In this document: positions 12,865 through 57,159 of the stretch, piece after piece
How positions within the stretch are numbered: the stretch's first letter is position 1
Layout of the letters: every line of letters starts with the position of its first letter
From: Tepidiformaceae bacterium
GTDB lineage: Bacteria > Chloroflexota > Dehalococcoidia > Tepidiformales > Tepidiformaceae
DNA: 64,000 nt
Assembly: GCA_045562595.1 (NCBI GenBank)
Contig: JBJKVN010000004.1
Coordinates: 41,460-105,459, forward strand
Reading direction: 5' to 3'
Notes under the pieces: model-generated
What the model saw: the letters and a program-made list of their open reading frames with translations, nothing else
Databases searched by the model: none
What the model was told of the DNA's origin: nothing
Made by a program: the position numbers and the translations under genes

Positions 12865-14023
12865 CCAAATATCTCCCTTTGTTAAATCGTCCATTAGGAT
12901 CGTAGACATCTTTGATCTTTTTCATTAAAGCAAAAGATGTTTTTTTTAGTCCCCAAGTATTAATTTTTATGTTTTGGTCTAAAGAGCGCTCAATGATAAT
13001 TATGGCATCAGACACTTCATTTTTCTCACGTAGTGATGCTATTCCAATAGCTGCCCCTGCTTTTTTTGCATTATTTGATTCCCAAGTAGCTCGTATTAAT
13101 CCAGTTAGTGGTCTTACCAGGAGGCTGTCTGGATGTAATTGTTGGAGTTCATTAACAATGAACTCCAATGAGCTATTTGTGCATGAAACTCTTATTGTTA
13201 ATTCGTCCTTTGCTGTGAATCCAAGATCACGTGCCTGCAGGTATAAATCCTCTTTTTCCTCTTTAATTAGTTTCTGATGAAGAATAGTCTGTGTTATTTC
13301 TTGTGTTTGTTCCGACAATCTAAGGAATAGTGTATGTGTCCCATTTTTTATCAGAATATCAGCACATTCAGGCCGAATATCCTTAATAAAGATTTCATCA
13401 ACAATTTTTTTTGCTTCAGAAAAATTAGTAACAGTTGCGCTATAGTCATTTGTCGTAACTATGGGTGTAACACGTAAGGCAACTTCAGTAATTAATCCGA
13501 TTGTTCCAAGAGATCCACACCAGAGTCGCATAAGATCATAACCGGTTACATTTTTTACAACCCTACCTCCAGCGCGGACTATCTCTCCATCAGCCCTTAA
13601 GACAGACATTCCTAAGACCCAATCGCGAGGCGGTCCAAATCTCGATTGTAGTGGTCCTCCAATCCCTACTGCTAAGATTCCTCCGATTGTGGCATTCTCA
13701 TTGTTCGGTGGGTCGATAGGAACCCTTTGTCCAGCTTTTTTTAGCTCGTCCTGGAGTTCTTTCAATGTTGTATTAGAGGATACTAAGACGGTTAAATCTG
13801 CAGGCTCGTGATCGATCTTTTTAGGAAAAGCTCTCTCTAGATATAATGCCGCGAATTTGCCCTCAGGCCTCTCTCCTAATTCTAGCTGTGTCCCTCCCCC
13901 GACTGGTAACAACGTTAGGTTATCCTTGTTTTTTACAATTTTAATAAGGTTTTCCAAGGAGTTTGGCCTATAGACTTCAGTGGCCTGTTTGTTTTTTACG
14001 CAGAATAGTTTAGATCCAGGCAT
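12854..14023 (-). CDS. glcE: Glycolate oxidase FAD-binding subunit GlcE
   Basis: FAD_binding_4-type N-terminus (LLPVGGGTQLELG, NVTGYDLMRL). It sits between glcD and glcF. Confidence 0.8.
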   Translation of the reverse strand: MPGSKLFCVKNKQATEVYRPNSLENLIKIVKNKDNLTLLPVGGGTQLELGERPEGKFAALYLERAFPKKIDHEPADLTVLVSSNTTLKELQDELKKAGQRVPIDPPNNENATIGGILAVGIGGPLQSRFGPPRDWVLGMSVLRADGEIVRAGGRVVKNVTGYDLMRLWCGSLGTIGLITEVALRVTPIVTTNDYSATVTNFSEAKKIVDEIFIKDIRPECADILIKNGTHTLFLRLSEQTQEITQTILHQKLIKEEKEDLYLQARDLGFTAKDELTIRVSCTNSSLEFIVNELQQLHPDSLLVRPLTGLIRATWESNNAKKAGAAIGIASLREKNEVSDAIIIIERSLDQNIKINTWGLKKTSFALMKKIKDVYDPNGRFNKGRYLGGI

Positions 14024-15829: not shown

Positions 15830-17143
15830 TTACTTTACTGTGTTATCCCTACTCTCGACTAGCCCCTCAAGTTCTTGGCGGAGTTGTTCATCGGGAACGC
15901 GGTCCAGAACTTCAAGAAAAAATCCTCGAATTAGCAAATCTGTAGCTTCTGCTAAGGTCAGTCCTCTGGATCGTAAGTAAAAGAGTTGATCATCTTCTAC
16001 GGGACCTACAGTAGCGCCATGACTCACCCTCTGTACATCATTTGTAAGGATTTCCAAAACCGGATCACTATCTGCTTGGGCAGTAGGACTTAATAACAGA
16101 TTACGATTTTGTTGATTTGCACTAGAATTACGTGCGTTTTCTCCAATGCGCGTAATTCCATAGTACACAGATTTACTAGTTCCACCGAGTGCTGATTTAA
16201 ACAATAAGTCACTAAAAGTATCTTCTCCAACATGATCTTGTAATGTGTAGAAATCAATATGTTCTACACCTTTACCCATACCAGTTCCATATCCTGCTCC
16301 GAAGAGCTCACTAGCGGAACCTCGCCCTTTTAATGTTGTTCCAATGTGTTGTTTAACCGTTTTTCCACTTATTGCCAAACTCAAGCTTTTTATCTGTGAG
16401 TTATCTTCCGTGATTGTTTGCTGGGCTCCAAAGGATTCCGTCTTACTGCCCCAACGGTGAACTGTGGTGTAGTTAACCGTTGCACCAGGGCCAGCAAAAA
16501 TTTCGACAATTGGAGTAGCAATTAAAGGAACATTTGTGGAAAAAAACTGTTCTATTATCTCAACATTGCTGTTTGCTCCCGCGACGATAACTGTATGTGG
16601 CGTTGCAAACTGTTTTGTTGTGTACCTATGTTCTACTCGAATTGGTTTGTCTAATTTCGTATCTGCACTGATTTCAATGACAGCGACATCTTGTAGATAT
16701 GCATAGTGGAGGGCCGTTAAACGGTTAGTGTCTGGCTGTACAGCTTGACCTAGAAGACTGGTGTCGGTAGAGCTTAAGTCAAGACCTTTTTGATAGGATT
16801 CGTTATGAATTACGATTCCGTTGTTTAGTTCAATACTACCGGCAGAGTTTCCGGTTTCTGAAACCTTAATTTTCTGATATTCGTCGCTCACAACGACTGG
16901 GTAGTCTTCTACATCTAGCTGGCTAATGTCTAAGTATTTCCATGGTCGCTCATTTTGCGAAGATGGCATTTGTAGCTTACCGCTCAAATCAAGCGCATCA
17001 GAACGTAGTACTGAGAGGTAGTCACTATCCTTAGAGCCTAATAGTTGGCTTGTTTTAGGCGTGATAGGTTTTTTTAACGGTTCTATTTTTGATGTAGTCG
17101 CCACCCGATATTTACCCGATAGCTCCTTCCATCTGGAGCTCAA
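15830..17143 (-). CDS. sufD: Fe-S cluster assembly protein SufD
   Basis: 437 aa with a C-terminal SufB/SufD beta-helix region ([24 protein letters not shown]). The track start overlaps sufB by 32 nt. GTG 17104 is an alternative start. Confidence 0.85.
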
Positions 17144-31340: not shown

Positions 31341-31473
31341 TAATAGGTTTAGTGTACTTCCGATTTAAGTTAGTTAACTATTGCAATCATCCTGAAATAG
31401 CTTTGATGCGTATCATAGTTTCCATATTATTGATAACATCTGTAAATCTCTTTTGCCTAAACAGGAGGTTACT

Positions 31474-32550
31474 GTGAAAGCTGCGGTATTACATGGCGTC
31501 GATCAGCCACTTTTGATCGAAGATATTGATATCGATGAACCCAGAGCAGGTGAGGTTCTCGTAAAGACTAGTGCGACTGGTGTTTGTCATTCGGATCTGC
31601 ATTTTATGGAAGGATTATATCCGACTAGATTCCCTGTCGTTTTGGGACATGAATCTGCTGGTGTGGTTGAAAAAATAGGTGATGGTGTGACGAATGTTGC
31701 TCCCGGGGACAGAGTCGTTGTTGCCTTTGTTGCATCCTGTGCAATTTGTGATAATTGTGTTCAAGGAAAGCCCTACTTATGTACTGGAGGGCAGGCTTTA
31801 GGACGTCATGATCGGTTATCTTTTGGTGGGGAGAGTGTTACACAATTTGCAGGGATGTCTGCTTTTGCGGAACACCAGCTTATAAGCGCTAGTGCTTGTG
31901 TGCCTGTCCCTGATGATGTGCCAATGGAGGTTGCAGCACTTGTTGGTTGTAGTGTTATGACCGGAGTTGGTGCTGCTTCAAATACTGCACGCATTGAAGT
32001 CGGCTCGACCGTCGCTGTTGTTGGGTGTGGAGGTGTTGGTTTGAATGTAATTCAAGGTGCTATTGCCTCTGGTGCTTCACGCGTCATCGCGGTAGATATG
32101 CTGGAGAATAAGCTTGCTTCTGCTAGGGAGTTTGGTGCCACTGATGTAGTTGATGCATCATCTGGTGATCCTGTAGCTGCTGTACAAGATCTTGTCCCGG
32201 GTGGTGTAGATTATGCATTCGAAGCAATTGGACTGACAGTTACAGCAGAGCAATGTTTTGAAATGATTAAACGTGGGGGAAGAGCAGTTATTGTCGGCAT
32301 GCTTCCAGCTGCTTCATCAGTTACGCTTCCAGGGGCTGCTTTCCTTGGTGAAAAGGGAATGATTGGTTCTTTCTATGGATCTACCAGACAGACTCATGAC
32401 ATGCCTTGGTTAATGGAACTGTATCGGCAAAAGCGTTTAAAAATCGATGAACTTATCTCTCGAAGATATGATCTCGATGGTATTAACGATGCCTTTGCTG
32501 CCTTAAAGAACGGTGAGGTAAATAGGAGTGTAATTACTTTTGAGGAATAA
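31474..32550 (+). CDS. Zinc-dependent alcohol dehydrogenase (class III / MDR family)
   Basis: The track ORF starts at TTG 31453, but AGGAGG (31463..31468) plus a 5-nt spacer points to GTG 31474. GVCHSDLH, GHESAGVV, the structural-zinc Cys cluster CAICDNCVQGKPYLC, and GCGGVGL (Rossmann). Confidence 0.88.
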   Translation: MKAAVLHGVDQPLLIEDIDIDEPRAGEVLVKTSATGVCHSDLHFMEGLYPTRFPVVLGHESAGVVEKIGDGVTNVAPGDRVVVAFVASCAICDNCVQGKPYLCTGGQALGRHDRLSFGGESVTQFAGMSAFAEHQLISASACVPVPDDVPMEVAALVGCSVMTGVGAASNTARIEVGSTVAVVGCGGVGLNVIQGAIASGASRVIAVDMLENKLASAREFGATDVVDASSGDPVAAVQDLVPGGVDYAFEAIGLTVTAEQCFEMIKRGGRAVIVGMLPAASSVTLPGAAFLGEKGMIGSFYGSTRQTHDMPWLMELYRQKRLKIDELISRRYDLDGINDAFAALKNGEVNRSVITFEE

Positions 32551-32574
32551 AGTAATTAGAGCAAAACAAATTAA

Positions 32575-32600
32575 GAAAACCCTGATAAATCAGGGTTTTC
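32575..32600. terminator. Perfect hairpin between convergent ADH and osmC (bidirectional intrinsic terminator)
   Basis: GAAAACCCTGA-TAAA-TCAGGGTTTTC is an 11-bp perfect stem with a 4-nt loop, flanked by A/T runs on both sides. It abuts the osmC stop. Confidence 0.75.
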
Positions 32601-33023
32601 TTAATTTTCCAATGAGGCAGTTACGATAATTTCAGGGACACTAGCAAGTGCTTTTGAAACTGGACAATTTTCTTTTGCTTGCGTAACTAGTTCTTGAAAG
32701 GTCTCTTCGTTAATCCCTGGTACCTTCGCCTCGCAATAAAGTTCTATTTTTGTGATTGTAGGACCATCTTCCAGATGTACAGTTGCACTTGTTTCAACTT
32801 TATCAGGTGTTATTTCATTATTTGAGATCAATGCCGATAAGAACATTGAAAAACAACCTGCATGTGCTGCACCAATTAGCTCTTCTGGATTGGTTCCCTC
32901 TTCTTCTTCAAATCGACTTGCAAATGTGTATGGTCCCTTATAGGTTCCTGCACCGATACTCATTTCACCATTTCCGTCTTTTAAGGTGCCGTTCCAAGTT
33001 GCAGTTGATTTCCGAATAGCCAT
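32601..33023 (-). CDS. osmC: OsmC-family peroxiredoxin / organic hydroperoxide reductase-like protein
   Basis: 140 aa. ATWNGTLKDGNG N-terminus and two conserved Cys contexts (AHAGCFSM, ENCPVSKAL). GGAG SD 7 nt upstream. Confidence 0.88.
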   Translation of the reverse strand: MAIRKSTATWNGTLKDGNGEMSIGAGTYKGPYTFASRFEEEEGTNPEELIGAAHAGCFSMFLSALISNNEITPDKVETSATVHLEDGPTITKIELYCEAKVPGINEETFQELVTQAKENCPVSKALASVPEIIVTASLEN

Positions 33024-36689: not shown

Positions 36690-38249
36690 TTAGTCGATTT
36701 CTCCTTTTTTACCCCAGCCTCCTCCTCCTGGTGTTTCTATACGCAAGCGATCACCTTTTTGAACTGTGAGTTGTACTGAACCTTCTAACTTGGTTTCTTC
36801 TCCATCCGGGTCTATATAAGTATTCTGGGCAGGAATCCCATCGATACCTCCTCTAAGTCCAAGTGCACCTTTCTTCCTGCGATCTCCTACTATACTTGCG
36901 ACCATATTTGTTAGAAATTCTATCTCTCTTACTAATCCATTGCCGCCTTGTTGTTCACCTAGGCCTCCACTGCTTGATCTGACTGAAAAGTTTCTAACAC
37001 GTACTGGAAATTCTGTTTCTATTGCTTCCGTTGGTGTATTTAGGGTGTTTGTCATATGTGTTTGAATGCCGTTTTCACCTGGGCTATTGGGCCCTCCACC
37101 AGAACCGCCGGGGATTGTTTCGTAATAGGCGAATGGCTGATTACCAGAAGCACTCCCAAAGGTGAAATTACTCATTGTTCCAGCACTTGACGCGGGAATA
37201 ATATTGGGCAGGGCTATAGATAGCGATCTTAAAACTACGTCTGTAATTCTTTGAGACGTTTCTACATTTCCTGCAGAAACTGCATGTTGAGCTGTTGCGT
37301 TAACAAGGCTTCCTTCTGGAATAATAGTTTTTATAGGTCGCGATACGCCTTCGTTTGAAGGCGTATCTTGAGGTAGCAAGCAACGGATGCAGTACAGTAC
37401 AGCTGATCTTGTAACTGCTGCGACTGCATTAATAGAAGCTTCTTGTTGTTTTGCTGTTCCAGTGAAATCAAAAGTAATAGTGTCACCTTTAACGGTTGTT
37501 TTCACGCAGATTGGTAGCAATACGTTTTCTTTTCCTTCCATGTGATCTACGGCTTCATAAATGCCATCAGGTATTTCAGAAATAGCGGATCTTGTTAATC
37601 GTTCCGCATAGTTTTTTAGTTCGGACATCCAAAAAGCGACTTTAGTAATATCATGCTTTGTAACTAAGTCTTGTAGTCTTTTTGCGCCAATTGCAAGTGC
37701 TCCTATTTGTGCTTCAAGGTCTCCTATTCGTTCATTAGGTGTTCTCACATTTCTTAGTAAAAGTTCGAGAACTTCTTGGTTGCGCACACCTTTCTTATAT
37801 AGACGGAGCGGTGGAATTATTAATCCTTCTTGATAAAGTTCTGATGCAACAGGCATTGAACCGGCTGACATTCCCCCTATATCAGCATGATGTGCTCGAT
37901 TTGCAACAAAGCCAAGCATCGTACCTTTTGAAAAAACAGGTGATACAAGTGTTATATCTGGCAGGTGAGTTCCGCCTAAATATGGATCATTCAGGATTAC
38001 CATGTCGCCTTCATCCCAAGGGGCAAGACGAGATATAACTTTTATTGCTTCAGGCATGGCACCCAGGTGAACTGGGATATGGGCTGCTTGGGCAACCAGT
38101 CCCCCTTCTATGTCAAACAAAGCACATGAAAAATCTTTACGTTCACGTATATTTGGCGAATGTCCAGTACGCCACAAAGCTATACCCATTTCATCTGCAA
38201 TCGATGATAGTAATAAGTTCCAGATTGACAGTTGTGCTGGGTTACTCAC
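36690..38249 (-). CDS. Hydantoinase B / 5-oxoprolinase B-type subunit (HyuB family)
   Basis: 519 aa. Hydantoinase_B blocks (DFSCALFD, LNDPYLGGTHLPDIT, NRAHHADIGG). GTG start overlaps the hyuA-like stop. Confidence 0.88.
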   Translation of the reverse strand: MSNPAQLSIWNLLLSSIADEMGIALWRTGHSPNIRERKDFSCALFDIEGGLVAQAAHIPVHLGAMPEAIKVISRLAPWDEGDMVILNDPYLGGTHLPDITLVSPVFSKGTMLGFVANRAHHADIGGMSAGSMPVASELYQEGLIIPPLRLYKKGVRNQEVLELLLRNVRTPNERIGDLEAQIGALAIGAKRLQDLVTKHDITKVAFWMSELKNYAERLTRSAISEIPDGIYEAVDHMEGKENVLLPICVKTTVKGDTITFDFTGTAKQQEASINAVAAVTRSAVLYCIRCLLPQDTPSNEGVSRPIKTIIPEGSLVNATAQHAVSAGNVETSQRITDVVLRSLSIALPNIIPASSAGTMSNFTFGSASGNQPFAYYETIPGGSGGGPNSPGENGIQTHMTNTLNTPTEAIETEFPVRVRNFSVRSSSGGLGEQQGGNGLVREIEFLTNMVASIVGDRRKKGALGLRGGIDGIPAQNTYIDPDGEETKLEGSVQLTVQKGDRLRIETPGGGGWGKKGEID

Positions 38250-40161
38250 TATTCTTGTACTCCAAAATTAAATTTCCAGAGTCATCTTCTTTTCCCTGCC
38301 AACCTGGTGGAATGAAAATTGTAGTATCGCTTTGTGTGATCACCACAGGTCCCTGAACCTTTTTTGGTAAATTGTCTCTGGAGTAAAGGCGTGAAGGTGT
38401 TCCTTCAATTTGTATAGACAGATTCAGGCTGTTGTTTGTGCTGTTTTCAAAAACGGGGATGTGTGGATTTTTTCCTTCGCCACGACAACGTAGTGCTACG
38501 ATTTGCACTTCCCTCTTGTGGTTAGCAAAACCATATTCTTTCTCATGTAGCTTGTGGAAAGAACTTGCTAAATCATCAGTAGGTGAAAGTATGGGAGTAC
38601 GCAGTTCATGTGCCTGACCTTTGTAACGAGCATCTACTGACCATTTTAGTAAGTTAATTGTTTCCCCAATTGATGAAAAGTCCTCTTGTATTTGAGATTC
38701 TAATTTTTTTGAGGTTTGTACTAACCTTTCTTTTATTTGTGGGTCAGATAAAGCTAATAAAATTGTTTCGCTACGTTCAATAACTTCAGTTGCGGTACCG
38801 ATTCCAATTGCAGAAAGTACGCCTGGTTTACTGGGTATCAAAACTTTTTTTATCCCGACTTCTTGAGCGAGCTCGCAAGCGTGTAAAGGACCTGCTCCAC
38901 CGAAGGCGACTAAACTAAAATCTTCAGGCTCGTATCCGCGTTCGACACTGACTTTTCGTATTGCTTTTGCCATTGTTGCGTTGGTTACTTCAATAACTGA
39001 TTTCGCACTTGATGAGGGTTCGCCAATATTTCCTAACGCGGTGCGTGATCGTTCTAAGTTAAGCTCTATTTTTCCGCCTAAAAGTTGTTCTGTTCTTAAG
39101 CGGCCTAATACAAGATTTGCATCAGTAACTGTTGCCTCTGTTCCGGTACCGTAACAAGCTGGCCCGGGGTGTGCCCCCGCGCTTTCTGGGCCAACAGTAA
39201 GTGCTCCGCCATCGTCAATTTTTGCCAAAGAACCTCCTCCAGCGCCAACAGTTATGATGTCAATTAATGAGGTTTGTAGAGTAAGCCCATCAATTTCTGC
39301 AGTATTCCGAAAATTGGGACTTCCGTCACACAGGGCTACATCTGTGCTTGTACCTCCCATATCGAAAGTTATAATTTTGGATAGGTCTGAAGCCTGTGCT
39401 ATTTTTAGTGCTCCTAAAACACCTCCTGCTGGTCCACTCATAACTAAAGAAACAGGTCTTTCGCTCGCGAGTTCCGCACTCGTTAGACCTCCTGCCGAAT
39501 GCATAATTCTTAAGTCAGGTTGTTTCTCTGATAATTCGTCTAAATAGGAACGAATTGTAGGTTGTAAGAATGCATTCAAAGCAGTCGTGCTGGCGCGCTC
39601 GTATTCTCGGTACTCGGGAGATACTTCTGAGGAAACGACCACATGAAGGCCGGCGGTTCTTAATGCTCGAGCAATTTGTGATTCATGCACATTATTTAAA
39701 AAGGAAAATAGGAAGCATATAGCAAATGTTTCCGCACCACTCTGTAGGGCTAATTTTCGGACTCTTGAGATCTCTTTTTCAGTAAGGGGTGTGATTATTC
39801 GGCCATGTGCATCTATTCGTTCATTTACGGAGATTGCTTCATCACTGGAAGTAACATGTGGTGTACGGCTTGGAGTAAGGTCATAACAATTTTCACGTTC
39901 TTGTCTACGGATCTGTAATAAATCTTGAAAACCAGCAGTCGTGATCAAAACTGTTTTTGCACCTTTCCTTTCAAGTATTGCGTTGGTTGCAATGGTACTT
40001 CCATGCACTAATTGATTAGATGATCCTGAAAGACCGGAAAGAACAGCTTGAGCTGGTTGCGAAGGTGTTGAAAGTGTTTTCCAAGTTCGTACGACACCAT
40101 CATTAAATTCTACAAAGTCAGTAAATGTTCCCCCAATATCTACCGCTAGTGTCTTCTTCAT
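38242..40161 (-). CDS. Hydantoinase A / 5-oxoprolinase A-type subunit (HyuA family)
   Basis: 639 aa. VDIGGTFTDFV, FDMGGTSTDV, and the ASKHA-fold ATPase of the hydantoinase/oxoprolinase/acetone-carboxylase family. Confidence 0.88.
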   Translation of the reverse strand: MKKTLAVDIGGTFTDFVEFNDGVVRTWKTLSTPSQPAQAVLSGLSGSSNQLVHGSTIATNAILERKGAKTVLITTAGFQDLLQIRRQERENCYDLTPSRTPHVTSSDEAISVNERIDAHGRIITPLTEKEISRVRKLALQSGAETFAICFLFSFLNNVHESQIARALRTAGLHVVVSSEVSPEYREYERASTTALNAFLQPTIRSYLDELSEKQPDLRIMHSAGGLTSAELASERPVSLVMSGPAGGVLGALKIAQASDLSKIITFDMGGTSTDVALCDGSPNFRNTAEIDGLTLQTSLIDIITVGAGGGSLAKIDDGGALTVGPESAGAHPGPACYGTGTEATVTDANLVLGRLRTEQLLGGKIELNLERSRTALGNIGEPSSSAKSVIEVTNATMAKAIRKVSVERGYEPEDFSLVAFGGAGPLHACELAQEVGIKKVLIPSKPGVLSAIGIGTATEVIERSETILLALSDPQIKERLVQTSKKLESQIQEDFSSIGETINLLKWSVDARYKGQAHELRTPILSPTDDLASSFHKLHEKEYGFANHKREVQIVALRCRGEGKNPHIPVFENSTNNSLNLSIQIEGTPSRLYSRDNLPKKVQGPVVITQSDTTIFIPPGWQGKEDDSGNLILEYKNSE

Positions 40162-42038
40162 CAGATATGTTCCTTTACAGTTTCCGCAAGACTACGAGTA
40201 AAACCGATGGTGGCAGCTATTTGATCTGTCTCTGCTTCTCTTAAGGCCTTTAAGGAGCCAAATTTTCGTAGAAGCGCTTTTTTGCGCTTAGGTCCTATTC
40301 CGGGAATTGTATCAAGTGCACTTTGTTGAGCCGCTTTGTTTCGCAGCTTTCTGTGATATGTAATAGCAAAACGATGTGCTTCATCTCTAATACGCTGAAT
40401 CAGATAAAGCGATTCAGAGTTTTCCTTCAAAATTATTGGATTATCCTCATCAGGTAAGAAAATCTCCTCATGACGCTTAGCAAGACCAGCTATAGGGATA
40501 TGGTAGATCCCAAGTTCTCGCATTGTTTTGACGGCAGCGCTTAGTTGTCCCTTACCACCGTCAACAATTACCAAATCAGGGAGAGCCCATTTTGTATCAT
40601 CAGAAATAGTGGTTGTCTCTTCTGAAGCCTCTTGGGCAGCAATTACAAATTGGTCAGCTGCTTTTTTAAAACGTCGATTCAGGACTTCTCGCATTGTTGC
40701 AAAATCATCTGCCCCAGCTACCGTTTTAATTTTAAATTTACGATATTGTTTCTTGTTTGCGCTTCCGTTCTCGAATACCACCATACTCGATACCGCATGT
40801 GTGCCCTGCAGGTTCGAGTTGTCATAGCATTCTATGCGATTCGGTTTTTGGCTAAGCGCCAATTCCTCTTGTATTTCCTGGAGAGCTATTTCCACCTTTG
40901 TTTTATCGGATAACCATTGCTGCTTCAATGAGATAAGCGTCTCATACGCATTTTCCGAAGCCATTTCAGAGAGCTTATGTTTTTCGCCACGTTTGGCTAT
41001 ACGAATTTTTACTTGAGCACCTTTTTTAGTACTCAAAATTTGTTCTAAATCGTCTAAGCCATCTGGTAAAAAAGGTACGATGATTAGTTTTGGAATAAAT
41101 TGTGCGCTTTCGTAATACTGTTGCAGGAAACTTTCTAGTATCGTTTTGTCTTTTTCATCACTAGTACCTTCCAGAACGAAATGGTCTCGGCCAGTCATTG
41201 ATGTTCCACGAATAAAAAATACTTGAACACAGGCGTGGTCTTTGTCTCTGGAAATCCCAAAAATGTCCAAGTCCTCCTTTTTTGTTGTTGCTAGCATCTG
41301 ACGTTCCATAGTGTTTGCTAAAGCAGTTATTTGATCTCGTAACATTGCTGCTCGCTCGTAGTCCATTGAAGCAGAGGCAGATTGCATTTGACTCTGTAAC
41401 TGCTTTAGAACTGTGTCAGATTTTCCTTCCAGAAACATAATGATTTGGCTGACAACCTCTGCGTACTCTTCCCGTGAACAGTAGGACGTGCAGGGTGCTA
41501 TACATCTCTTAATGTAATAATCGAGGCAAGGACGTGGGTCATTACCAGTGATTGGTTTTGTGCAGGAGCGATAAGGGAAAAGCTTTTTTAGTAGGTCAAG
41601 TGTTGATCGAATAGATCCTGCATTTGCATATGGTCCGAAGTATCTGGCACCATCTTTTTCAATTCTCCTTGTGATATATACACGAGGCCAGTCATTTTGC
41701 ACATCGATTTTCAAGTATGGGTAGCGCTTATCATCTTTTAAGCGAATGTTAAAAAAGGGCTGGTGACGTTTTATAAGGGTTGCTTCTAGGATTAATGCTT
41801 CGCCAGGGTTCGCACATATGATGTACTCAATGTTTGCTATGTGTTCTCGAAGTATCCGTGTTTTTGGTTCTAGGCTCCTTGAGGATCCGAAATAGGAGCG
41901 CACTCTATTTTTTAAGTTTGTGGCTTTTCCTACGTAGATCACTTCCCCTTTTTCATTACGCATTAGATAAACACCAGGTTTTTGTGGCATTGTTTTAACT
42001 TGTTGTGTTAGTACTTGGGAGGATGTTTTTGTCTCCAT
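40161..42038 (-). CDS. uvrC: Excinuclease ABC subunit C (UvrC)
   Basis: 625 aa. GIY-YIG domain (PGVYLMRNEKGEVIYVGKA), UVR domain, Endo V-like domain and a C-terminal (HhH)2 (IPGIGPKRKKALL). Confidence 0.95.
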   Translation of the reverse strand: METKTSSQVLTQQVKTMPQKPGVYLMRNEKGEVIYVGKATNLKNRVRSYFGSSRSLEPKTRILREHIANIEYIICANPGEALILEATLIKRHQPFFNIRLKDDKRYPYLKIDVQNDWPRVYITRRIEKDGARYFGPYANAGSIRSTLDLLKKLFPYRSCTKPITGNDPRPCLDYYIKRCIAPCTSYCSREEYAEVVSQIIMFLEGKSDTVLKQLQSQMQSASASMDYERAAMLRDQITALANTMERQMLATTKKEDLDIFGISRDKDHACVQVFFIRGTSMTGRDHFVLEGTSDEKDKTILESFLQQYYESAQFIPKLIIVPFLPDGLDDLEQILSTKKGAQVKIRIAKRGEKHKLSEMASENAYETLISLKQQWLSDKTKVEIALQEIQEELALSQKPNRIECYDNSNLQGTHAVSSMVVFENGSANKKQYRKFKIKTVAGADDFATMREVLNRRFKKAADQFVIAAQEASEETTTISDDTKWALPDLVIVDGGKGQLSAAVKTMRELGIYHIPIAGLAKRHEEIFLPDEDNPIILKENSESLYLIQRIRDEAHRFAITYHRKLRNKAAQQSALDTIPGIGPKRKKALLRKFGSLKALREAETDQIAATIGFTRSLAETVKEHI

Positions 42039-42098
42039 ATATTAAGTTTACTAATATCGATGTATCTTGTATTTATCTCGTTTTAACCGGTGCCAAAA

Positions 42099-42905
42099 AT
42101 GAAATATCAACATATCAAATATGAAGTTACTGAAGGGGTTGCAATCATTACCCTTAATCGTCCTGAAAAGCTGAATGCGTTTGACAACACAATGTTGAAG
42201 GAATGGCATGATGCAATTAGTTCCGCAGACAAAGATGATGAAGTACGGGTTATCGTTCTTACGGGGGAGGGAAGAGGCTTTTGTGCAGGGATGGATGTTG
42301 GAGATGAAGCCGGTGGTGTTGGGGTATTGCGTTCTCAGGACACAGTGAGTAGCCGTAGAAAGTCATTACGTGATTCTGTTCATCATATTCCCCGAGCATT
42401 AATTCAACTTGAGAAGCCCTATATTGCTGCCGTGAATGGTGCAGCAGTGGGGGCTGGCATGGATATGGCTTCTATGGCAGATATTCGTTTTGCTAGCGAG
42501 AAGGCACGTTTTGGGATGGCCTATGTACGGATGGGGTTAGTCCCGGGAGATGGTGGTGCCTATACATTGCCAAGAATTGTTGGTGTAGCAAAGGCCTTGG
42601 AACTGATCTGGACGGGTAAACTATTTGATGCTCAAGAAGCCTTAGAAATTGGCTATGTTAGTGCTGTTTATGCATCTGATGAACTATTGGATCGAACAAA
42701 AGAATTTGCTTCTAAGCTGGCAAATGGTCCAGCCACAGCTATTCAACTTTCAAAGAAATTGGTATACCGATCACTGGAGATGCCTTTTGATGATCATCTT
42801 GATTTTGCGCAGATGGCCATGACTATTGCTCAGTCAACGGAAGATGCAAAAGAAGGGCCGTTGGCATTTTTAGAAAAACGAGAACCTAACTTCAAAGGCC
42901 ATTAA
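42099..42905 (+). CDS. Enoyl-CoA hydratase/isomerase (crotonase) family protein
   Basis: GVAIITLNRPEKLNAF, TGEGRGFCAGMD, AAVNGAAVGAGMDMA. The track start is GTG 42090. ATG 42099 gives the usual N-terminus. Confidence 0.88.
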   Translation: MKYQHIKYEVTEGVAIITLNRPEKLNAFDNTMLKEWHDAISSADKDDEVRVIVLTGEGRGFCAGMDVGDEAGGVGVLRSQDTVSSRRKSLRDSVHHIPRALIQLEKPYIAAVNGAAVGAGMDMASMADIRFASEKARFGMAYVRMGLVPGDGGAYTLPRIVGVAKALELIWTGKLFDAQEALEIGYVSAVYASDELLDRTKEFASKLANGPATAIQLSKKLVYRSLEMPFDDHLDFAQMAMTIAQSTEDAKEGPLAFLEKREPNFKGH

Positions 42906-42965
42906 GAATTGTTCTGTTTTTCAGTCGTGCTGTTAGACTGTTTAAAATACTTTAAGGAGATTGTC

Positions 42966-43427
42966 ATGAGTTTAAATGTTGGCGATGGTGCGCCTGATTT
43001 TCTTTTAAAAACTGGATTTACCGAAGAAGACGCTATAGTTCTTAACGATTACAAAGATAAAACTCTTGTCTTAGCATTTTTCCCACTTGCATTCACAGGG
43101 GGCTGAACAGCTGAGATGGCTGCTTTTACGAAATTGGAAGAAGATTTTGTAAAAGCTGATGCCCACGTGTTGGGTGTGAGTACCGATTCTTTTGCGGCAA
43201 ATGGTGTATTTGCTAAAGAGCTTGGTTGTAGTTTTCCAATTGCATCTGATGCGCCGAAATATCAAACCGGTCGAGATTATGCGGTATTAAATGAGGAGAT
43301 GGGATTTCATAATCGTGTCACATTCGTGATTGATGGTGAAGGTACTATTCGTGATATCAATACTGATGGCCGCGATTTTGAGGGGCATGCCCCACGAGCA
43401 TTAGAGGTAGTTCAGGGCTTGTCTTAA
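42966..43427 (+). CDS. BCP/PrxQ-type peroxiredoxin with in-frame TGA (43104..43106) at the peroxidatic Cys position: candidate selenocysteine protein
   Basis: Track ORFs 42909..43106 and 43116..43427 are in the same frame, separated only by TGA plus three sense codons. The joined product is 153 aa: MSLNVGDGAPDF...VLAFFPLAFTGG[TGA]TAEMAAF...VLGVSTDS...HNRVTFVIDGEG. AAGGAGA (42954..42960) lies 5 nt before ATG 42966. The TGA sits where Prx proteins have T-x-x-C. Confidence 0.75.
43122..43156 (+). promoter_or_regulatory. SECIS-like mRNA hairpin downstream of the peroxiredoxin UGA
   Basis: GCTTTTACGAAAT (43122..43134) pairs with ATTTTGTAAAAGC (43144..43156): 13 contiguous bp including one G-U. 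The 9-nt apical loop is TGGAAGAAG with G at loop position 2. The loop starts 28 nt after the UGA. Confidence 0.55.
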
Positions 43428-43442
43428 GTTACTGAGAAAAAT

Positions 43443-44609
43443 ATGCTATTTCGAGATTCTCCTGAGCAGGCTATCTTCCGGGCAGAGTTACGAGATTTTT
43501 TAGATCAAGAACTTCCTTCCAGTGAATGGAATATGCGAAACGATCGTGAGGAAATGAACGAAGATGAATCCATTTTCACACGACAATTTCGTAATAAGCT
43601 AGCCGAAAAGGGCTGGCTAACCTTGGGCTGGCCAACTGCGTTTGGTGGTGGTGGGGCAGATTTCGTTATGCAAACGATCTATATGGAAGAGATGTCTTCT
43701 CGCGGAGCACCAGGGGCATATGATCAGGGTATTTGGCTGGCAGGACCAGCACTAATGCAACAAGGCACGACTTTGCAGCAAGATCGTTGGTTGCCAGGCC
43801 TCCGAAGTGGGACATCCAACTGGTGTCAATTGTTTAGCGAACCCGGAGCAGGGTCCGATCTTGCTTCTCTGCAAACAAGTGCAGTGCGTGATGGTGATGA
43901 GTATATCTTGAATGGTCAGAAAATTTGGTCCTCAGGTGCGGCCCAAGCTGATTGGGGTATTTTGTTAGCTCGTACGGATACTGATGCCCCCAAGCACCGG
44001 GGGATATCGTATTTTATTTTAGATATGAATTTACCCGGAATTACTGTTCGGCCTCTAACAAATATGATGGAAACTGGTCATTTTTGTGAAGTTTTTTTCG
44101 ATGATGTTCGAATACCTAAAGATTGCCTCATAGGTGAGGAAAACCGCGGATGGTATACAGCAGCCGGAACACTTGATCAGGAAAGATCGTCCATAAACAG
44201 AGTCGTCATGTCACGTTCTACTTTGGAGGCATTGATCGAGGCTGTCCGTAAAAAAAGTTCTGCAACTATGGAGGTTCGCTACGAGATTGCTGATCGTTCA
44301 ATAGACTTTGAAATTGGTCGTTGGTTGTGTTATCGAGTGGCATATATGCAGAGCCAAGGATTAAGCCCAAATTATGAAGCCTCTATTAGTAAAGTCTTTG
44401 GAACAGAATTGCAGCGTCAGATTGGAATTAGCGGTATTCGCGTACTAGGTCTGTATGGTTTGCTTGAACCAAATAGTCCATATGCCCCTCTAAGGGGAAG
44501 GGTCGAACGTTGGGCATTGGCTGGTCCTTCCTACACGATTGCTGGTGGTACGAGTGAGGTAAACCGCAATGTGATCGCAACGCGAGGTTTAGGCCTGCCA
44601 CGTGCTTGA
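43443..44609 (+). CDS. Acyl-CoA dehydrogenase family protein
   Basis: 388 aa with N, middle and C ACAD domains (SEPGAGSDLASL, GQKIWSSGA, IAGGTSEVNRNVIA). Confidence 0.88.
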   Translation: MLFRDSPEQAIFRAELRDFLDQELPSSEWNMRNDREEMNEDESIFTRQFRNKLAEKGWLTLGWPTAFGGGGADFVMQTIYMEEMSSRGAPGAYDQGIWLAGPALMQQGTTLQQDRWLPGLRSGTSNWCQLFSEPGAGSDLASLQTSAVRDGDEYILNGQKIWSSGAAQADWGILLARTDTDAPKHRGISYFILDMNLPGITVRPLTNMMETGHFCEVFFDDVRIPKDCLIGEENRGWYTAAGTLDQERSSINRVVMSRSTLEALIEAVRKKSSATMEVRYEIADRSIDFEIGRWLCYRVAYMQSQGLSPNYEASISKVFGTELQRQIGISGIRVLGLYGLLEPNSPYAPLRGRVERWALAGPSYTIAGGTSEVNRNVIATRGLGLPRA

Positions 44610-44646
44610 TTTTGCATAGAGTCTAAAAAGTGAGAATCACGTAACC

Positions 44647-45354
44647 TTGTTGCTTTTACCTAATGGCCATCAATCAAAATTGTTAATCCCTATAGCAGCT
44701 ATCTTTACTGGCATTCTTATTGTTTCAAATATTGTTGCAATCAAGATGGTTAATTTTGATGGCCTTAACCCTTTTGGTGCAGTTTATTTTCCTGGTGCCG
44801 TTATCATTTTCCCAATCTCATATATTTTTGGGGATATTCTTGCTGAAGTATATGGGTTTCGTGTTGCTAGGATTACTATCTGGTCTGCATTTTTGGCGAA
44901 TATTGTTGTTGTGTTTTCTATCTTACTTGTTATGGAGATGCCTTCAGCACCATTTTGGCATGATCAAGATGCCTATGAAGCTATCTTAGGACCTGTTTGG
45001 AGGATAGTACTAGGTTCCTTTCTTGCTTTTATTGTCGGAGAGTTTGCAAACACATATGTTTTGGTTCGCATGAAAAAAATTACTGGTGGTCGTTTTTTAT
45101 GGACACGTACCATTGCTTCTACCATTGTCGGCCAAGGAATCGACACAGCGATTTTTGCTAGTGTGGCTTTTGGGGGTACTGTAGCTTTTCAGGGTGGTAC
45201 TTTGATTTGGCAGGAGTGGATGGCTAAAGTGATTTATGAAGCAATTGGTACTCCTTTAACCTATATTGTGGTTAATTTCTTAAAAAAACATGAAGGTATT
45301 GATACCTTTGATTCAGATGATGTTTCTTACAACCCATTTAAAATTTGGGCATGA
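44647..45354 (+). CDS. yhhQ: Queuosine-precursor transporter (YhhQ / VUT / DUF165 family)
   Basis: 235 aa, multi-TM. FPISYIFGDILAEVYG and IASTIVGQGIDTAIF are DUF165 signature blocks. TTG start. Confidence 0.75.
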   Translation: MLLLPNGHQSKLLIPIAAIFTGILIVSNIVAIKMVNFDGLNPFGAVYFPGAVIIFPISYIFGDILAEVYGFRVARITIWSAFLANIVVVFSILLVMEMPSAPFWHDQDAYEAILGPVWRIVLGSFLAFIVGEFANTYVLVRMKKITGGRFLWTRTIASTIVGQGIDTAIFASVAFGGTVAFQGGTLIWQEWMAKVIYEAIGTPLTYIVVNFLKKHEGIDTFDSDDVSYNPFKIWA

Positions 45355-45385
45355 GTATTGGTCTGGTCTAACTACGGAATGGATT

Positions 45386-45955
45386 TTAAAATCTATGACT
45401 ATCCCACAGTATGTCTTGGTGTCCGTTTAGCTGGTTTTCAGTACGTGCAAGAACAAAAAGCAAGTCACTCAGGCGATTTAAATAAGGTATTACTTGTTCA
45501 CCAACAGATTCTTCTCGTGCTAAGGCTACTAGCAACCTTTCAGCTCTTCTACAGATAGTGCGAGACAAGTGAAGTAAGCCAGCTGCTGAAGTACCACCAG
45601 GTAGGACAAAGCTTGTTAAAGGCTCAAGCTTTTCATTCCAAAGATCAATCCAAACTTCTAATTGCTGGACATGTTTTTCGTTAATGACTGGGCCGCCGAT
45701 CTGGTCCTCATCTTCAGTGGGTGGAGTTGCTAATTCAGCCCCTAAGTTAAATAGGATCTGTTGGATTACTAGTAATGGCTCGTGCAGTTCTTTGTTCAGG
45801 TTGGAGGCTATTGCAGCACCAATTGCGCTATTTAATTCGTCCACTGTGCCGTACGTTTCGATCCGGAGGCTATCTTTTGGTACTCGAACACCACCAACGA
45901 GAGATGTACTTCCTCCATCTCCCGATCGTGTGTATACGCGATTAATTTTTACCAT
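45386..45955 (-). CDS. ATP:cob(I)alamin adenosyltransferase, PduO type
   Basis: 189 aa. VYTRSGDGGSTSL N-terminus, FVLPGG and ICRRAER blocks typical of PduO/MMAB-type adenosyltransferases. Confidence 0.88.
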   Translation of the reverse strand: MVKINRVYTRSGDGGSTSLVGGVRVPKDSLRIETYGTVDELNSAIGAAIASNLNKELHEPLLVIQQILFNLGAELATPPTEDEDQIGGPVINEKHVQQLEVWIDLWNEKLEPLTSFVLPGGTSAAGLLHLSRTICRRAERLLVALAREESVGEQVIPYLNRLSDLLFVLARTENQLNGHQDILWDSHRF

Positions 45956-46028
45956 TTGCTTAAGAATGACCTATTACGGCAGATAAGGCTACTTGTTCAA
46001 TACAAAAAAAGAACGTTACCATTGAAAT

Positions 46029-46334
46029 ATGGCGTTATATGAATATTTTTGTAAAGAGTGTGAAGTTTCTTTTGAAGTTCGCATGCCCATGGCTGAAGTA
46101 ACTCAATTTTCCGTATGCCCTACTTGTGATGGACGTGCTAGTAAAGTACTTGGTAATTTTTCATTAGTAGGTAGAGCAGAGGAAAATCTTAGTGATGGAC
46201 CTGCACCGTGGGAAAGTGGATCAGACGAGGGTACAGGAGATGGAGAAGCTTCTGGTATTCCAGATTTAAGTGCCCCCCATTCTCATGGTCATTCTCATGG
46301 TCATTCCCATGGTCCTGGTGGTCACGCTCACTGA
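46029..46334 (+). CDS. FmdB-family zinc-ribbon protein with His-rich C-terminal tail
   Basis: MALYEYFCKECEVSFEV...CPTCDG is the FmdB/CxxC_CxxC_SSSS zinc ribbon. The C-terminus is an acidic linker followed by HSHGHSHGHSHGPGGHAH. Confidence 0.85.
   Translation: MALYEYFCKECEVSFEVRMPMAEVTQFSVCPTCDGRASKVLGNFSLVGRAEENLSDGPAPWESGSDEGTGDGEASGIPDLSAPHSHGHSHGHSHGPGGHAH
46278..46313 (+). repeat. Three tandem 12-nt units (CATTCTCATGGT) encoding (HSHG)x3 inside the FmdB-like gene
   Basis: Read directly: cattctcatggt cattctcatggt cattcccatggt. One T>C difference in unit 3. Confidence 0.9.
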
Positions 46335-46354
46335 TCGTTTTGTTTTAAAAAAGT

Positions 46355-47464
46355 TTATATTTCCAGCATTTGAGCTACACGCTCTCTATGGAAGTCAGCA
46401 TCACCCCAGAAGAGTTCTGCCCGTTTTTGTCTTCGAAAATATAACTGGATAATGTAGTCTTTTGTAAAGCCTATTCCACCATGAATTTGTTGACCATGTG
46501 CGACAACCCGACGGCTTGCATCGCTACACCAAGCCTTAGCCATAGCGACATCCATGTCCTGTGATTCTGCATCTTCACTTGTAGCCCAGGCAGCTTTATA
46601 TGTGATAAAGCGCATGCCATCAACATCAGTCACCATGTCAGCAGCTTTATGTTGAATGGCTTGGAATGAGCCAATTGGCCTACCAAATTGGACACGTTCT
46701 TTTGCATAGTCTATTGCAATCTCAAAATCTTTTTGGGCAAGCCCCACAAGATAAGAGCACTCTAGGGAAGTTCCTACATTCCGTACACGTCCCATTTTGG
46801 ACATATCAACAGCTACTGCTTCATCGGCGCTAACTTTTACATTCTTCAGAACAACTTCTGCTTGTTTGTCGCTTCCGATCGTCTTAAGCATCGAAATTTC
46901 AACGCCATCTTGTTCTCTTGCAACGATGAAAATACCGAATCCCCCACCTGGCTTTAGAGCTGCGACATGCAAATAATCTGCGACATTTGCATCAGGTACA
47001 AATAATTTTGTTCCATTTAGAACCCAATTCCCACCATCCTCTTGGGCTTCAAGCTGGATGCCTTCTGGATCCCAACGACCTGATTCTTCGGTTAGTGCGT
47101 ACGTATGTATTACAGAACCATCCGCGAGTCCTGGAAGATATTTACTTTTTTGATCATCAGAAGCATGAGTCATCAGGATGCTGGCACATACTTGATTCGG
47201 GATGAATGGACCCGGTACTAAGGAGCGACCAAATTCTTCTACTAGGACACATAAATCCAAAAATGAGAAACCTACGCCACCATACTCCTCCGGAATCATC
47301 AGTCCTTGCCATCCCAGATCAGCCATTTTTTTCCAGAGTTCTGGACTATAGCCACGTTCATCTTCTTCCATTGCCCGAACATGTTCTTCTGGGCATTCGC
47401 TTGATAGAAAGTCTCTTGCTGAATTTCTTAAGAGCTCTTGTTCTTCACTAAGACTTAGGTCCAT
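46355..47464 (-). CDS. Acyl-CoA dehydrogenase family protein
   Basis: 369 aa. The ACAD domain order is conserved, but the catalytic-base region is divergent (FGRPIGSFQAIQHKAADM). Confidence 0.85.
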   Translation of the reverse strand: MDLSLSEEQELLRNSARDFLSSECPEEHVRAMEEDERGYSPELWKKMADLGWQGLMIPEEYGGVGFSFLDLCVLVEEFGRSLVPGPFIPNQVCASILMTHASDDQKSKYLPGLADGSVIHTYALTEESGRWDPEGIQLEAQEDGGNWVLNGTKLFVPDANVADYLHVAALKPGGGFGIFIVAREQDGVEISMLKTIGSDKQAEVVLKNVKVSADEAVAVDMSKMGRVRNVGTSLECSYLVGLAQKDFEIAIDYAKERVQFGRPIGSFQAIQHKAADMVTDVDGMRFITYKAAWATSEDAESQDMDVAMAKAWCSDASRRVVAHGQQIHGGIGFTKDYIIQLYFRRQKRAELFWGDADFHRERVAQMLEI

Positions 47465-56304: not shown

Positions 56305-57159
56305 TTACTTTTTAGAGAGATGTTCTAGTAGAAGTTTATTGACTGTCTGAGGTGCTTCTTGCTGTACAAAGTGGCCATTATCTGGCAAATAAAAAATAGC
56401 AAGATCTGGTACGTATTGGTCTGTATCAAACGTCAGTTCTTTTCCTAGCGCAAAATCTTTTTCTCCCCAAATCATTGTTGTTCGTGCTACGACTTGCATG
56501 GATGAATTTAAATTCCGTGTGAATGAAGTGTTGCCCTTTACTATGTTCCTAGCCATGGCACGATACCAATTGATCCCTCCGCTAAGTCCATATTTTTTCC
56601 AACTGTTGACATAAAATTTAACATCTTCATCCGTGTTAGGTTTTATCCGAGACATTAAACGCGCGAATCCTTGATAATTGTTACGTGCTAAAAGTTTTTC
56701 AGGGAGCAAAGGTATCTGAAAGAAAAAGATGTACCAACTACGTTTGAGTTGTGTGAAAGTTCGCAGACCTTTAAAAAAATTTGCCGGGTGTGGAATATTA
56801 CATATTCCTAGAGTTTGTACTACTTCTGGATTAGAAATAGCGAGACTCCATGCAATTGCACCTCCCCAGTCATGGCCGATGATATGAGCTTGTTTACTGC
56901 CGAGATGATTAATTAGCTGAATAACATCTTCTCTTAGAGTTTCTATATCAAATGGGCCAGTGTTATCTGTTTCGTTGTATCCACGCAGGTCAGGCGCGAC
57001 AACATGGTATTGCGTTGATAGAGCTTTGATTTGATGTCTCCATGAATACCAACAATCCGGAAATCCATGTAAAAGGATTACTAACTCTCCGCTACCGGCT
57101 TCCACATAATGCACGCGTATTCCATTGATTGTTGCGTAATTATGTTCTAGGTCTGACAT
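56305..57159 (-). CDS. Alpha/beta hydrolase, epoxide hydrolase / haloalkane dehalogenase-like
   Basis: 284 aa. HGFPDCWYSWRHQI (HGxP oxyanion motif) and GHDWGG (Asp nucleophile elbow), with a C-terminal His in DNGHFVQQE. Confidence 0.85.
   Translation of the reverse strand: MSDLEHNYATINGIRVHYVEAGSGELVILLHGFPDCWYSWRHQIKALSTQYHVVAPDLRGYNETDNTGPFDIETLREDVIQLINHLGSKQAHIIGHDWGGAIAWSLAISNPEVVQTLGICNIPHPANFFKGLRTFTQLKRSWYIFFFQIPLLPEKLLARNNYQGFARLMSRIKPNTDEDVKFYVNSWKKYGLSGGINWYRAMARNIVKGNTSFTRNLNSSMQVVARTTMIWGEKDFALGKELTFDTDQYVPDLAIFYLPDNGHFVQQEAPQTVNKLLLEHLSKK

Follow-up and report, generated by a model that had tools for sequence, protein, structure and literature searches.

A probable selenocysteine-containing peroxiredoxin gene in a marine member of the Dehalococcoidia

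In a 64-kb stretch of DNA from a Tepidiformaceae bacterium (contig JBJKVN010000004.1; Dehalococcoidia), referred to here as the window, a peroxiredoxin-like reading frame is interrupted by a single TGA codon at 43104-43106. The question raised by this locus is whether the TGA ends translation, marks a decayed gene, or specifies selenocysteine (Sec). A first-pass annotation, made from the letters of the DNA, had favoured a Sec-decoding gene over a pseudogene, and this is upheld by the conservation of the TGA and of the hairpin behind it, purifying selection, homologues with Cys in place of Sec, and agreement with published criteria. It is very likely (probability about 0.9), on the basis of these comparisons, that the locus is a single gene for a 153-aa thiol/selenol peroxidase of marine Dehalococcoidia (SAR202-like), in which UGA 43104 is decoded as Sec through a selenocysteine insertion sequence (SECIS) at 43122-43156.

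A reading frame broken at the peroxidatic codon

The two open reading frames (ORFs) 42909..43106 and 43116..43427 lie in the same frame, and only the TGA and three sense codons stand between them. Translated through the TGA, they give a product of 46 + U + 106 = 153 aa, preceded by a strong Shine-Dalgarno sequence. Re-reading of the sequence bears out the first-pass annotation on each of these points, and also on the intact context of the conserved downstream Arg (HNRVTFVID). The features of the gene, all on the + strand, are as follows.

42954..42960, +, Shine-Dalgarno sequence AAGGAGA, 5 nt upstream of ATG 42966, read off the sequence
42966..43427, +, predicted selenoprotein coding sequence, 153-aa peroxiredoxin with Sec as residue 47 and stop codon TAA at 43425-43427, from translation
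43095..43097, +, codon ACA for Thr44 of the T-x-x-U motif, invariant in 66/66 reconstructed Sec-form relatives
43104..43106, +, UGA codon for the predicted Sec47, the peroxidatic residue, aligned to the peroxidatic Cys of homologues
43122..43156, +, putative bacterial SECIS hairpin within the coding sequence, 5′ arm 43122-43135, loop GGAAGAA 43136-43142, 3′ arm 43143-43156, from the minimum free energy (MFE) fold
43227..43229, +, codon TGT for Cys88, the sole other Cys and a candidate resolving Cys, from conservation in its clade
43314..43316, +, codon CGT for Arg117, the active-site Arg of HNRVTFVID, invariant in 66/66 Sec-form relatives and in all aligned protein homologues

When Cys is put in place of the stop, the read-through protein matches the Pfam AhpC-TSA domain (E = 9.6e-30) over residues 5-130 and profile positions 1-123 of 124, in a single stretch that crosses the TGA; Redoxin is also matched. 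The active-site motif reads FTGG[U]TAEM, as against FTGGCTAEM in the closest Cys homologue. There are no further frameshifts or stops in the gene. A reassigned code, with TGA read as Trp or Gly, was considered and rejected: TGA closes 10 of the 44 open frames of at least 200 codons in the window and is an ordinary stop there, therefore the genetic code is not reassigned.

In the protein collection searched, the gene is present only as 103-aa split fragments, with no full-length entry. The nearest two matches (P0001 and P0002, 96 % and 87 % identical, with 29 and 6 member sequences) are such C-terminal fragments, indicating that the relatives are split at the same point. The contigs that encode them were produced by ocean projects independent of one another, and directly upstream a 46-aa AhpC-TSA fragment has been called as a protein of its own; that ORF callers would split the gene had been foreseen, and the public calls are indeed 46-aa and 103-aa pieces. 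The best full-length matches are about 46 % identical and all have Cys at the TGA column, which agrees with the earlier placement of the TGA at the peroxidatic Cys.

On a rival view, translation truly terminates at the UGA, and the locus yields the 46-aa N-terminal peptide, a 103-aa protein begun anew at ATG 43116, or both, with no Sec. That ATG is only 10 nt past the TGA, and the 103-aa product stands in databases as a called protein (P0001, P0002). However, the sequence ahead of it, CAGGGGGCTGAACAGCTGAG, holds no Shine-Dalgarno site comparable to that of ATG 42966, one Pfam match spans the junction, and the 103-aa piece is without the active-site strand, Thr44 and the peroxidatic residue. 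Termination would also leave unexplained the exact coincidence of the break with the catalytic Cys codon in many diverged clades, and the SECIS-conforming hairpin behind it. It is therefore considered very improbable.

The hairpin begins 15 nt past the TGA. Its arms 43122-43134 and 43144-43156 pair, including one G-U, which is the 13-bp stem first noted; the MFE fold gains the pair U43135-G43143 and so lengthens the stem to 14 bp, closing a 7-nt loop, GGAAGAA. A 71-nt context folds at -23.5 kcal/mol, compared with -13.1 ± 2.6 kcal/mol in shuffled sequences (z = -4.05), and none of 200 shuffles was as stable. The published bacterial SECIS (bSECIS) criteria (PMC13188914) and the values for the isolated hairpin are given below.

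Apical loop: required 3-9 nt; observed 7 nt
Upper stem: required 4-16 bp; observed 14 bp
G at the first two loop positions: required at least one; observed GG
UGA-to-loop spacing: required 16-37 nt; observed 29 nt
Hairpin MFE: required -7.5 kcal/mol or lower; observed -13.5 kcal/mol

The hairpin thus lies within all of the published limits, and the earlier suggestion that it fits the bacterial SECIS pattern is supported. Hairpins of this kind are rare behind TGA triplets in the window. When all 2,308 TGA triplets on both strands were scanned for an uninterrupted hairpin at 16-37 nt with a G in the first two loop positions, 12 preceded a stem of at least 8 bp. A stem of at least 12 bp followed only two, TGA 43104 and the out-of-frame TGA 43112, 8 nt downstream, which uses the identical hairpin.

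Conservation of the TGA and of the hairpin

Whether orthologues carry Cys or TGA at this column was a check proposed with the first-pass annotation, and both were found. A scan of metagenome DNA, seeded with peptides that exclude the TGA, gave 80 loci, and a local tblastn was then run over all 90 loci. The codon aligned to residue 47 is TGA in 82/90, TGC in 7/90 and TGT in 1/90. At the DNA level the nearest relatives are therefore overwhelmingly Sec forms, whereas the full-length entries in the protein database are Cys forms only. Around 70 homologues from soil, peat and freshwater (within L013-L090; 35-48 % aa identity) have TGA at the peroxidatic position.

The TGA is retained in 12 marine loci, which were assembled independently (TARA, ALOHA and others). 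Over 6.46 kb, the window runs colinear, at 95.3 % nucleotide identity, with a Dehalococcoidia metagenome-assembled genome (MAG) sampled at Station ALOHA (JAKUNN010000028). At about 77 % it is likewise colinear with an 88-kb metagenome contig and with a second Dehalococcoidia MAG, from an uncultured member (CAWVTC010000042). The lineage of loci L002 and L012, also at about 77 % nucleotide identity over the syntenic region and with a protein about 87 % identical, keeps both the TGA and the hairpin. A sequencing or assembly error that turned TGC or TGT into TGA has only its prior possibility in its favour, and it is refuted because different projects and assemblers gave TGA in 12 marine loci, and about 70 more loci from other environments have it as well.

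The window gene was compared codon by codon with the 87 %-identical L002.

Upstream of the TGA: 46 codons; 14 synonymous and 7 nonsynonymous changes
Hairpin zone: 17 codons; 5 synonymous and 0 nonsynonymous changes
Remainder of the gene: 89 codons; 30 synonymous and 12 nonsynonymous changes

Changes are mostly synonymous both before and after the TGA, so that each half of the gene is constrained as coding sequence by purifying selection. This excludes a pseudogene and speaks against two independent products.

A hairpin is found in every Sec clade, its stem starting 17-20 nt from the U of the UGA, despite differing sequences and encoded peptides. Measured against shuffled sequences, the region +12 to +60 is more stably folded in Sec forms (mean z -2.07, n=71), whereas in Cys forms it is not (mean z -0.20, n=8; Mann-Whitney p = 1.3e-5). 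In the marine clade, represented by five distinct sequences, 98.6 % of pair cells are standard; sliding the partners lowers this to 60 % or less. Its stem core has three substitutions, all compatible with pairing (A-U to G-U, G-U to G-C and G-C to G-U), and four of the five sequences pass when the bSECIS criteria are applied strictly, with uninterrupted stems only. In soil clade A, with 29 distinct sequences, 88.9 % of cells are paired, compared with at most 52 % when slid, and four pairs are altered on both sides (for example C-G, G-C and A-U at one pair, U-A and C-G at another). Covariation in this clade is 0.226, compared with 0.085 in shuffles, and 0/500 shuffles reach it. Co-variation of the hairpin, another of the proposed checks, is therefore present in soil clade A; it is not seen in the marine clade, where changes are one-sided only.

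These results bear on the possibility that the locus is a pseudogene, in which a Cys codon (TGC or TGT) suffered a nonsense mutation to TGA and the hairpin is coincidental. In its favour, TGA is a normal stop in the window, ORF callers give two ORFs, and no Sec machinery is seen in the window. Against it, the TGA is also present in lineages at about 77 % nucleotide identity and in 82/90 relatives down to 35 % aa identity, no more frameshifts or stops are present, and the hairpin accompanies TGA forms only, with covariation in a sister clade. On the conservation of the TGA across relatives, a pseudogene is effectively refuted.

A number of observations weigh against Sec decoding or against its hairpin. 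The marine clade, with only five distinct sequences, has no two-sided compensatory change and its stem changes are one-sided, with an uninformative shuffle control, so that covariation inside this clade is not demonstrated. L012 has a C·A mismatch beside the loop-closing pair. The strict bSECIS version passes only 27/71 Sec-form relatives, because it forbids bulges and loops of more than 9 nt; support for the hairpin at family level was taken from the z-scores and covariation, with this home-made predictor excluded. The loop of soil clade B is 13 nt, beyond the canonical 3-9 nt. Between the window gene and L002, synonymous change over the hairpin zone (5/17 codons) is not below that in the rest of the gene. 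Finally, no tRNA-Sec was found in the 64-kb window (ARAGORN and Rfam; only a tRNA-Ala), nor in 60 related loci (ARAGORN), and six-frame motif scans of the window found no SelA, SelB or SelD signatures. The missing machinery is an absence in a small sample, not in a genome.

Nor was there a credible candidate for a second selenoprotein gene in the window, whether among TGA-joined ORF pairs, in a scan of gaps for redox motifs, or in the scan for hairpins after TGA. Two Dehalococcoidia MAGs in BSepDB, which may belong to a lineage other than that of the window, have 49 and 46 selenoprotein genes and are among the ten richest bacteria (PMC13326102). At such a density, in a genome of a few megabases, about one selenoprotein gene per 60 kb would be expected, and the single gene in the window fits this.

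The open ocean is low in selenium, and misincorporation of Cys at Sec codons is known from other systems. It could therefore be proposed that the UGA is read through without Sec, either as Cys carried on tRNA(Sec) under selenium limitation or as Trp by hairpin-stimulated near-cognate decoding. However, the locus has a textbook selenoprotein signature (Cys/Sec pair, bSECIS and TxxU), Trp or Gly at the peroxidatic position would abolish catalysis, and insertion of Cys through tRNA(Sec) would still require the SelB/SECIS route. Genes for Sec-peroxiredoxins are, moreover, abundant in ocean metagenomes (PMC2398784). Read-through of this kind is very improbable, and Sec insertion is the preferred reading of the UGA.

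In soil clade B (for example L060:2645-2700), the TGA is followed by an 8-bp stem, CUUCCAGC/GCUGGAAG, with a 13-nt loop. To judge by its shape, this may be a non-canonical class of SECIS; about 13 % of cases in BSepDB are also non-canonical (PMC13326102). In at least 14 soil clade B loci (L041, L045, L046, L053, L060-L062, L065, L070, L076, L078, L080, L086 and L090), the Sec-peroxiredoxin gene has a tRNA-Met (CAT) gene some hundreds of nt to its 3′ side, in conserved synteny.

Family, active site and significance

The locus had been described as a BCP/PrxQ-type peroxiredoxin. None of the NCBIfam models attains its cutoff with the window protein; the scores of the two relevant models are as follows.

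PrxU model NF040737: 60.9 bits; curated cutoff 270, not reached; best-scoring NCBIfam model
Bcp model NF006960: 52.8 bits; curated cutoff 140, not reached

In a single-sequence search of solved structures, AhpE of Mycobacterium tuberculosis comes first (68 bits, E = 8e-18), 1.6 bits ahead of Prx2 (67 bits), with BCP chains at 42-54 bits. In a search with a profile built from the window protein together with its closest relatives, the crenarchaeal BCP 2ywn comes first (166 bits), followed by 2cx3 and 3hjp (144 bits) and AhpE (139 bits); Prx1-type chains reach at most 111 bits. Since AhpE leads by single sequence and the crenarchaeal BCPs lead by profile, the family appears to lie on the AhpE/BCP border. 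All peroxiredoxin subfamilies have the fold in common. The BCP/PrxQ label is only partly right; it is defensible but not established, the single sequence being nearest to AhpE and the Bcp cutoff being missed.

AhpE of M. tuberculosis (Rv2238c; PDB 1xvw, 1xxu, 4x0x) is likewise of 153 aa, aligns almost without gaps (3-130 to 3-130) and shares FFPLAFTG-x-C; it differs in having Cys, not Sec, and Phe at the position of Cys88. The BCP/PrxQ proteins (Escherichia coli Bcp, NF006960; crenarchaeal 2ywn, 2cx3 and 3hjp) are also short, single-domain peroxiredoxins and include the top profile matches, whereas those of bacterial origin among the solved BCPs (5iiz and relatives) reach no more than about 43 bits by single sequence. 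The resolving Cys of the alpha2-type 2-Cys BCP/PrxQ proteins, five residues past the peroxidatic residue, is absent, residue 52 being Ala (U47-T-A-E-M-A52). PrxU of Eubacterium acidaminophilum (NF040737) likewise has Sec at the peroxidatic position of a peroxiredoxin, but it is a longer, Prx1-like protein with a profile of 233 positions, whereas the window protein, at 153 aa, has no C-terminal extension. By sequence, the window protein is not a PrxU orthologue.

Each Sec clade has one further conserved Cys, at a position that depends on the clade. All 4 aligned proteins of the marine clade have Cys88, which the other clades lack. In soil sequences a Cys is found near the C-terminus in 55/66 (the column of V149 of the window protein); a third, small group (4/66) has it in the residue-78 column instead. 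These clade-specific cysteines are candidates for resolving cysteines, which would form a selenenylsulfide with Sec47. The soil Sec clades have Val or Ile for the Pro of PxxxTxxU in 55/66 sequences, and soil proteins have hydrophobic N-terminal leaders (about 190 aa in total); the marine protein is leaderless and retains Pro40.

Translation would start at ATG 42966, and at UGA 43104 the hairpin 43122-43156 would recruit SelB carrying Sec-tRNA(Sec), with the loop 29 nt downstream of the UGA, so that selenocysteine is inserted with no termination. Sec47, in place of the T-x-x-C peroxidatic Cys, is expected to attack hydroperoxides together with Thr44 and Arg117, giving a selenenic acid. This would be resolved, probably by Cys88 as a selenenylsulfide, and a partner of the thioredoxin or glutaredoxin type would then reduce the selenenylsulfide.

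Prx (TxxU) is an established family of prokaryotic selenoproteins (PMC13188914; PMC2398784). A Sec-peroxiredoxin has been demonstrated experimentally in E. acidaminophilum and the family is included in current reviews. In the Global Ocean Sampling (GOS) data, Prx was the sixth most abundant selenoprotein family, with 253 sequences from 34 samples (PMC2398784); in an updated marine dataset it makes up 7.1 % of selenoprotein genes, and a 2016 survey reported Prx TxxU in 78 sequenced bacteria. The literature agrees with the first-pass annotation's mention of Sec-peroxiredoxins in a Gram-positive anaerobe and in marine metagenomes. The T-x-x-U family of Zhang, Gladyshev et al. (PF00578/COG1225; GOS, Sargasso Sea) shares with the window gene the AhpC/TSA domain, Sec for the TxxC Cys, a bSECIS within the coding sequence just 3′ of the UGA, many Cys homologues and abundance in the sea. 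There is no essential difference, the window gene being a marine Dehalococcoidia member of it. In the literature searched, no paper linked SAR202 with selenoproteins, and there was no substantive link of AhpE with selenoproteins.

The window gene is therefore a further, well-supported member of Prx (TxxU) and a correction to annotation, with no new mechanism; the family being already well known and abundant, it is a fairly ordinary find. What is known of how selenoproteins or peroxiredoxins work is unchanged. In at least 12 ocean assemblies, however, an antioxidant enzyme is annotated as 46-aa and 103-aa pieces, and through such split calls both the peroxide-defence capacity and the selenium demand of marine Dehalococcoidia are under-counted. 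The locus also offers a concrete, well-supported selenoprotein for an abundant deep-ocean lineage, in which a defined SECIS hairpin and the candidate redox pair Sec-Cys88 are open to experiment.

A wider reading, possible but on balance doubtful, places the window gene, as its marine branch without a leader, in a large peroxiredoxin clade at the AhpE/BCP border. This clade would be unannotated for the most part, and Sec would be its majority state (82/90 of the nearest DNA-level relatives) and possibly the ancestral one. As part of this same tentative picture, the resolving Cys would have been re-invented in each branch (Cys88 in SAR202-like Dehalococcoidia, a C-terminal Cys in the soil branches), and the soil branches would be marked by signal-like leaders, by Val or Ile for the 'invariant' Pro and, in one of them, by a SECIS with a 13-nt loop. 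If all of this were true, aerobic, pelagic SAR202 would be routine users of selenium.

Genomic surroundings and other features of the window

A gap of 60 nt separates the Sec-peroxiredoxin gene from an enoyl-CoA hydratase gene ahead of it, and one of 15 nt from the acyl-CoA dehydrogenase gene that follows. UvrC and caprolactamase-like subunits are encoded upstream on the opposite strand; downstream are a queuosine-precursor transporter and a PduO-type adenosyltransferase. No terminator-like site was found between the three same-strand genes, which lends weak support to an operon, and promoter-like sites were fewer than in shuffles. From this arrangement, co-transcription of the Sec-peroxiredoxin gene with the enoyl-CoA hydratase and acyl-CoA dehydrogenase genes is plausible.

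The region 36690-47464 of the window is rich in genes for enoyl-CoA hydratases, acyl-CoA dehydrogenases (pimC/pimD-like) and caprolactamase/hydantoinase-like proteins. Expansions of catabolic paralogues have been described in SAR202-type Dehalococcoidia, and this gene content fits them. In the ocean contig L004 (746-2707), synteny with the window is lost 746 nt in, and the Sec-peroxiredoxin gene is followed on its 3′ side by a short N-terminal fragment of an acyl-CoA dehydrogenase and then by a 316-aa Pyr_redox_2 protein. The latter is thioredoxin-reductase-like by its domain and is possibly a neighbour from the reductant system.

The gene at 46029-46334 (+) encodes a zinc-ribbon protein of the FmdB family (TIGR02605), whose C-terminal tail is rich in His and Gly and whose four metal-binding positions are all Cys; members of this family with U/CxxU are counted as selenoproteins in reviews. 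A perfect 18-bp hairpin with a 4-nt loop lies at 32568-32607, between the convergent ORFs 31453-32550 (+) and 32601-33023 (-), and from its position is probably a bidirectional transcription terminator. Other + strand hairpins with uninterrupted stems of 14-15 bp and loops of 3-8 nt are present at 13139-13171, 16125-16158 and 56611-56646.

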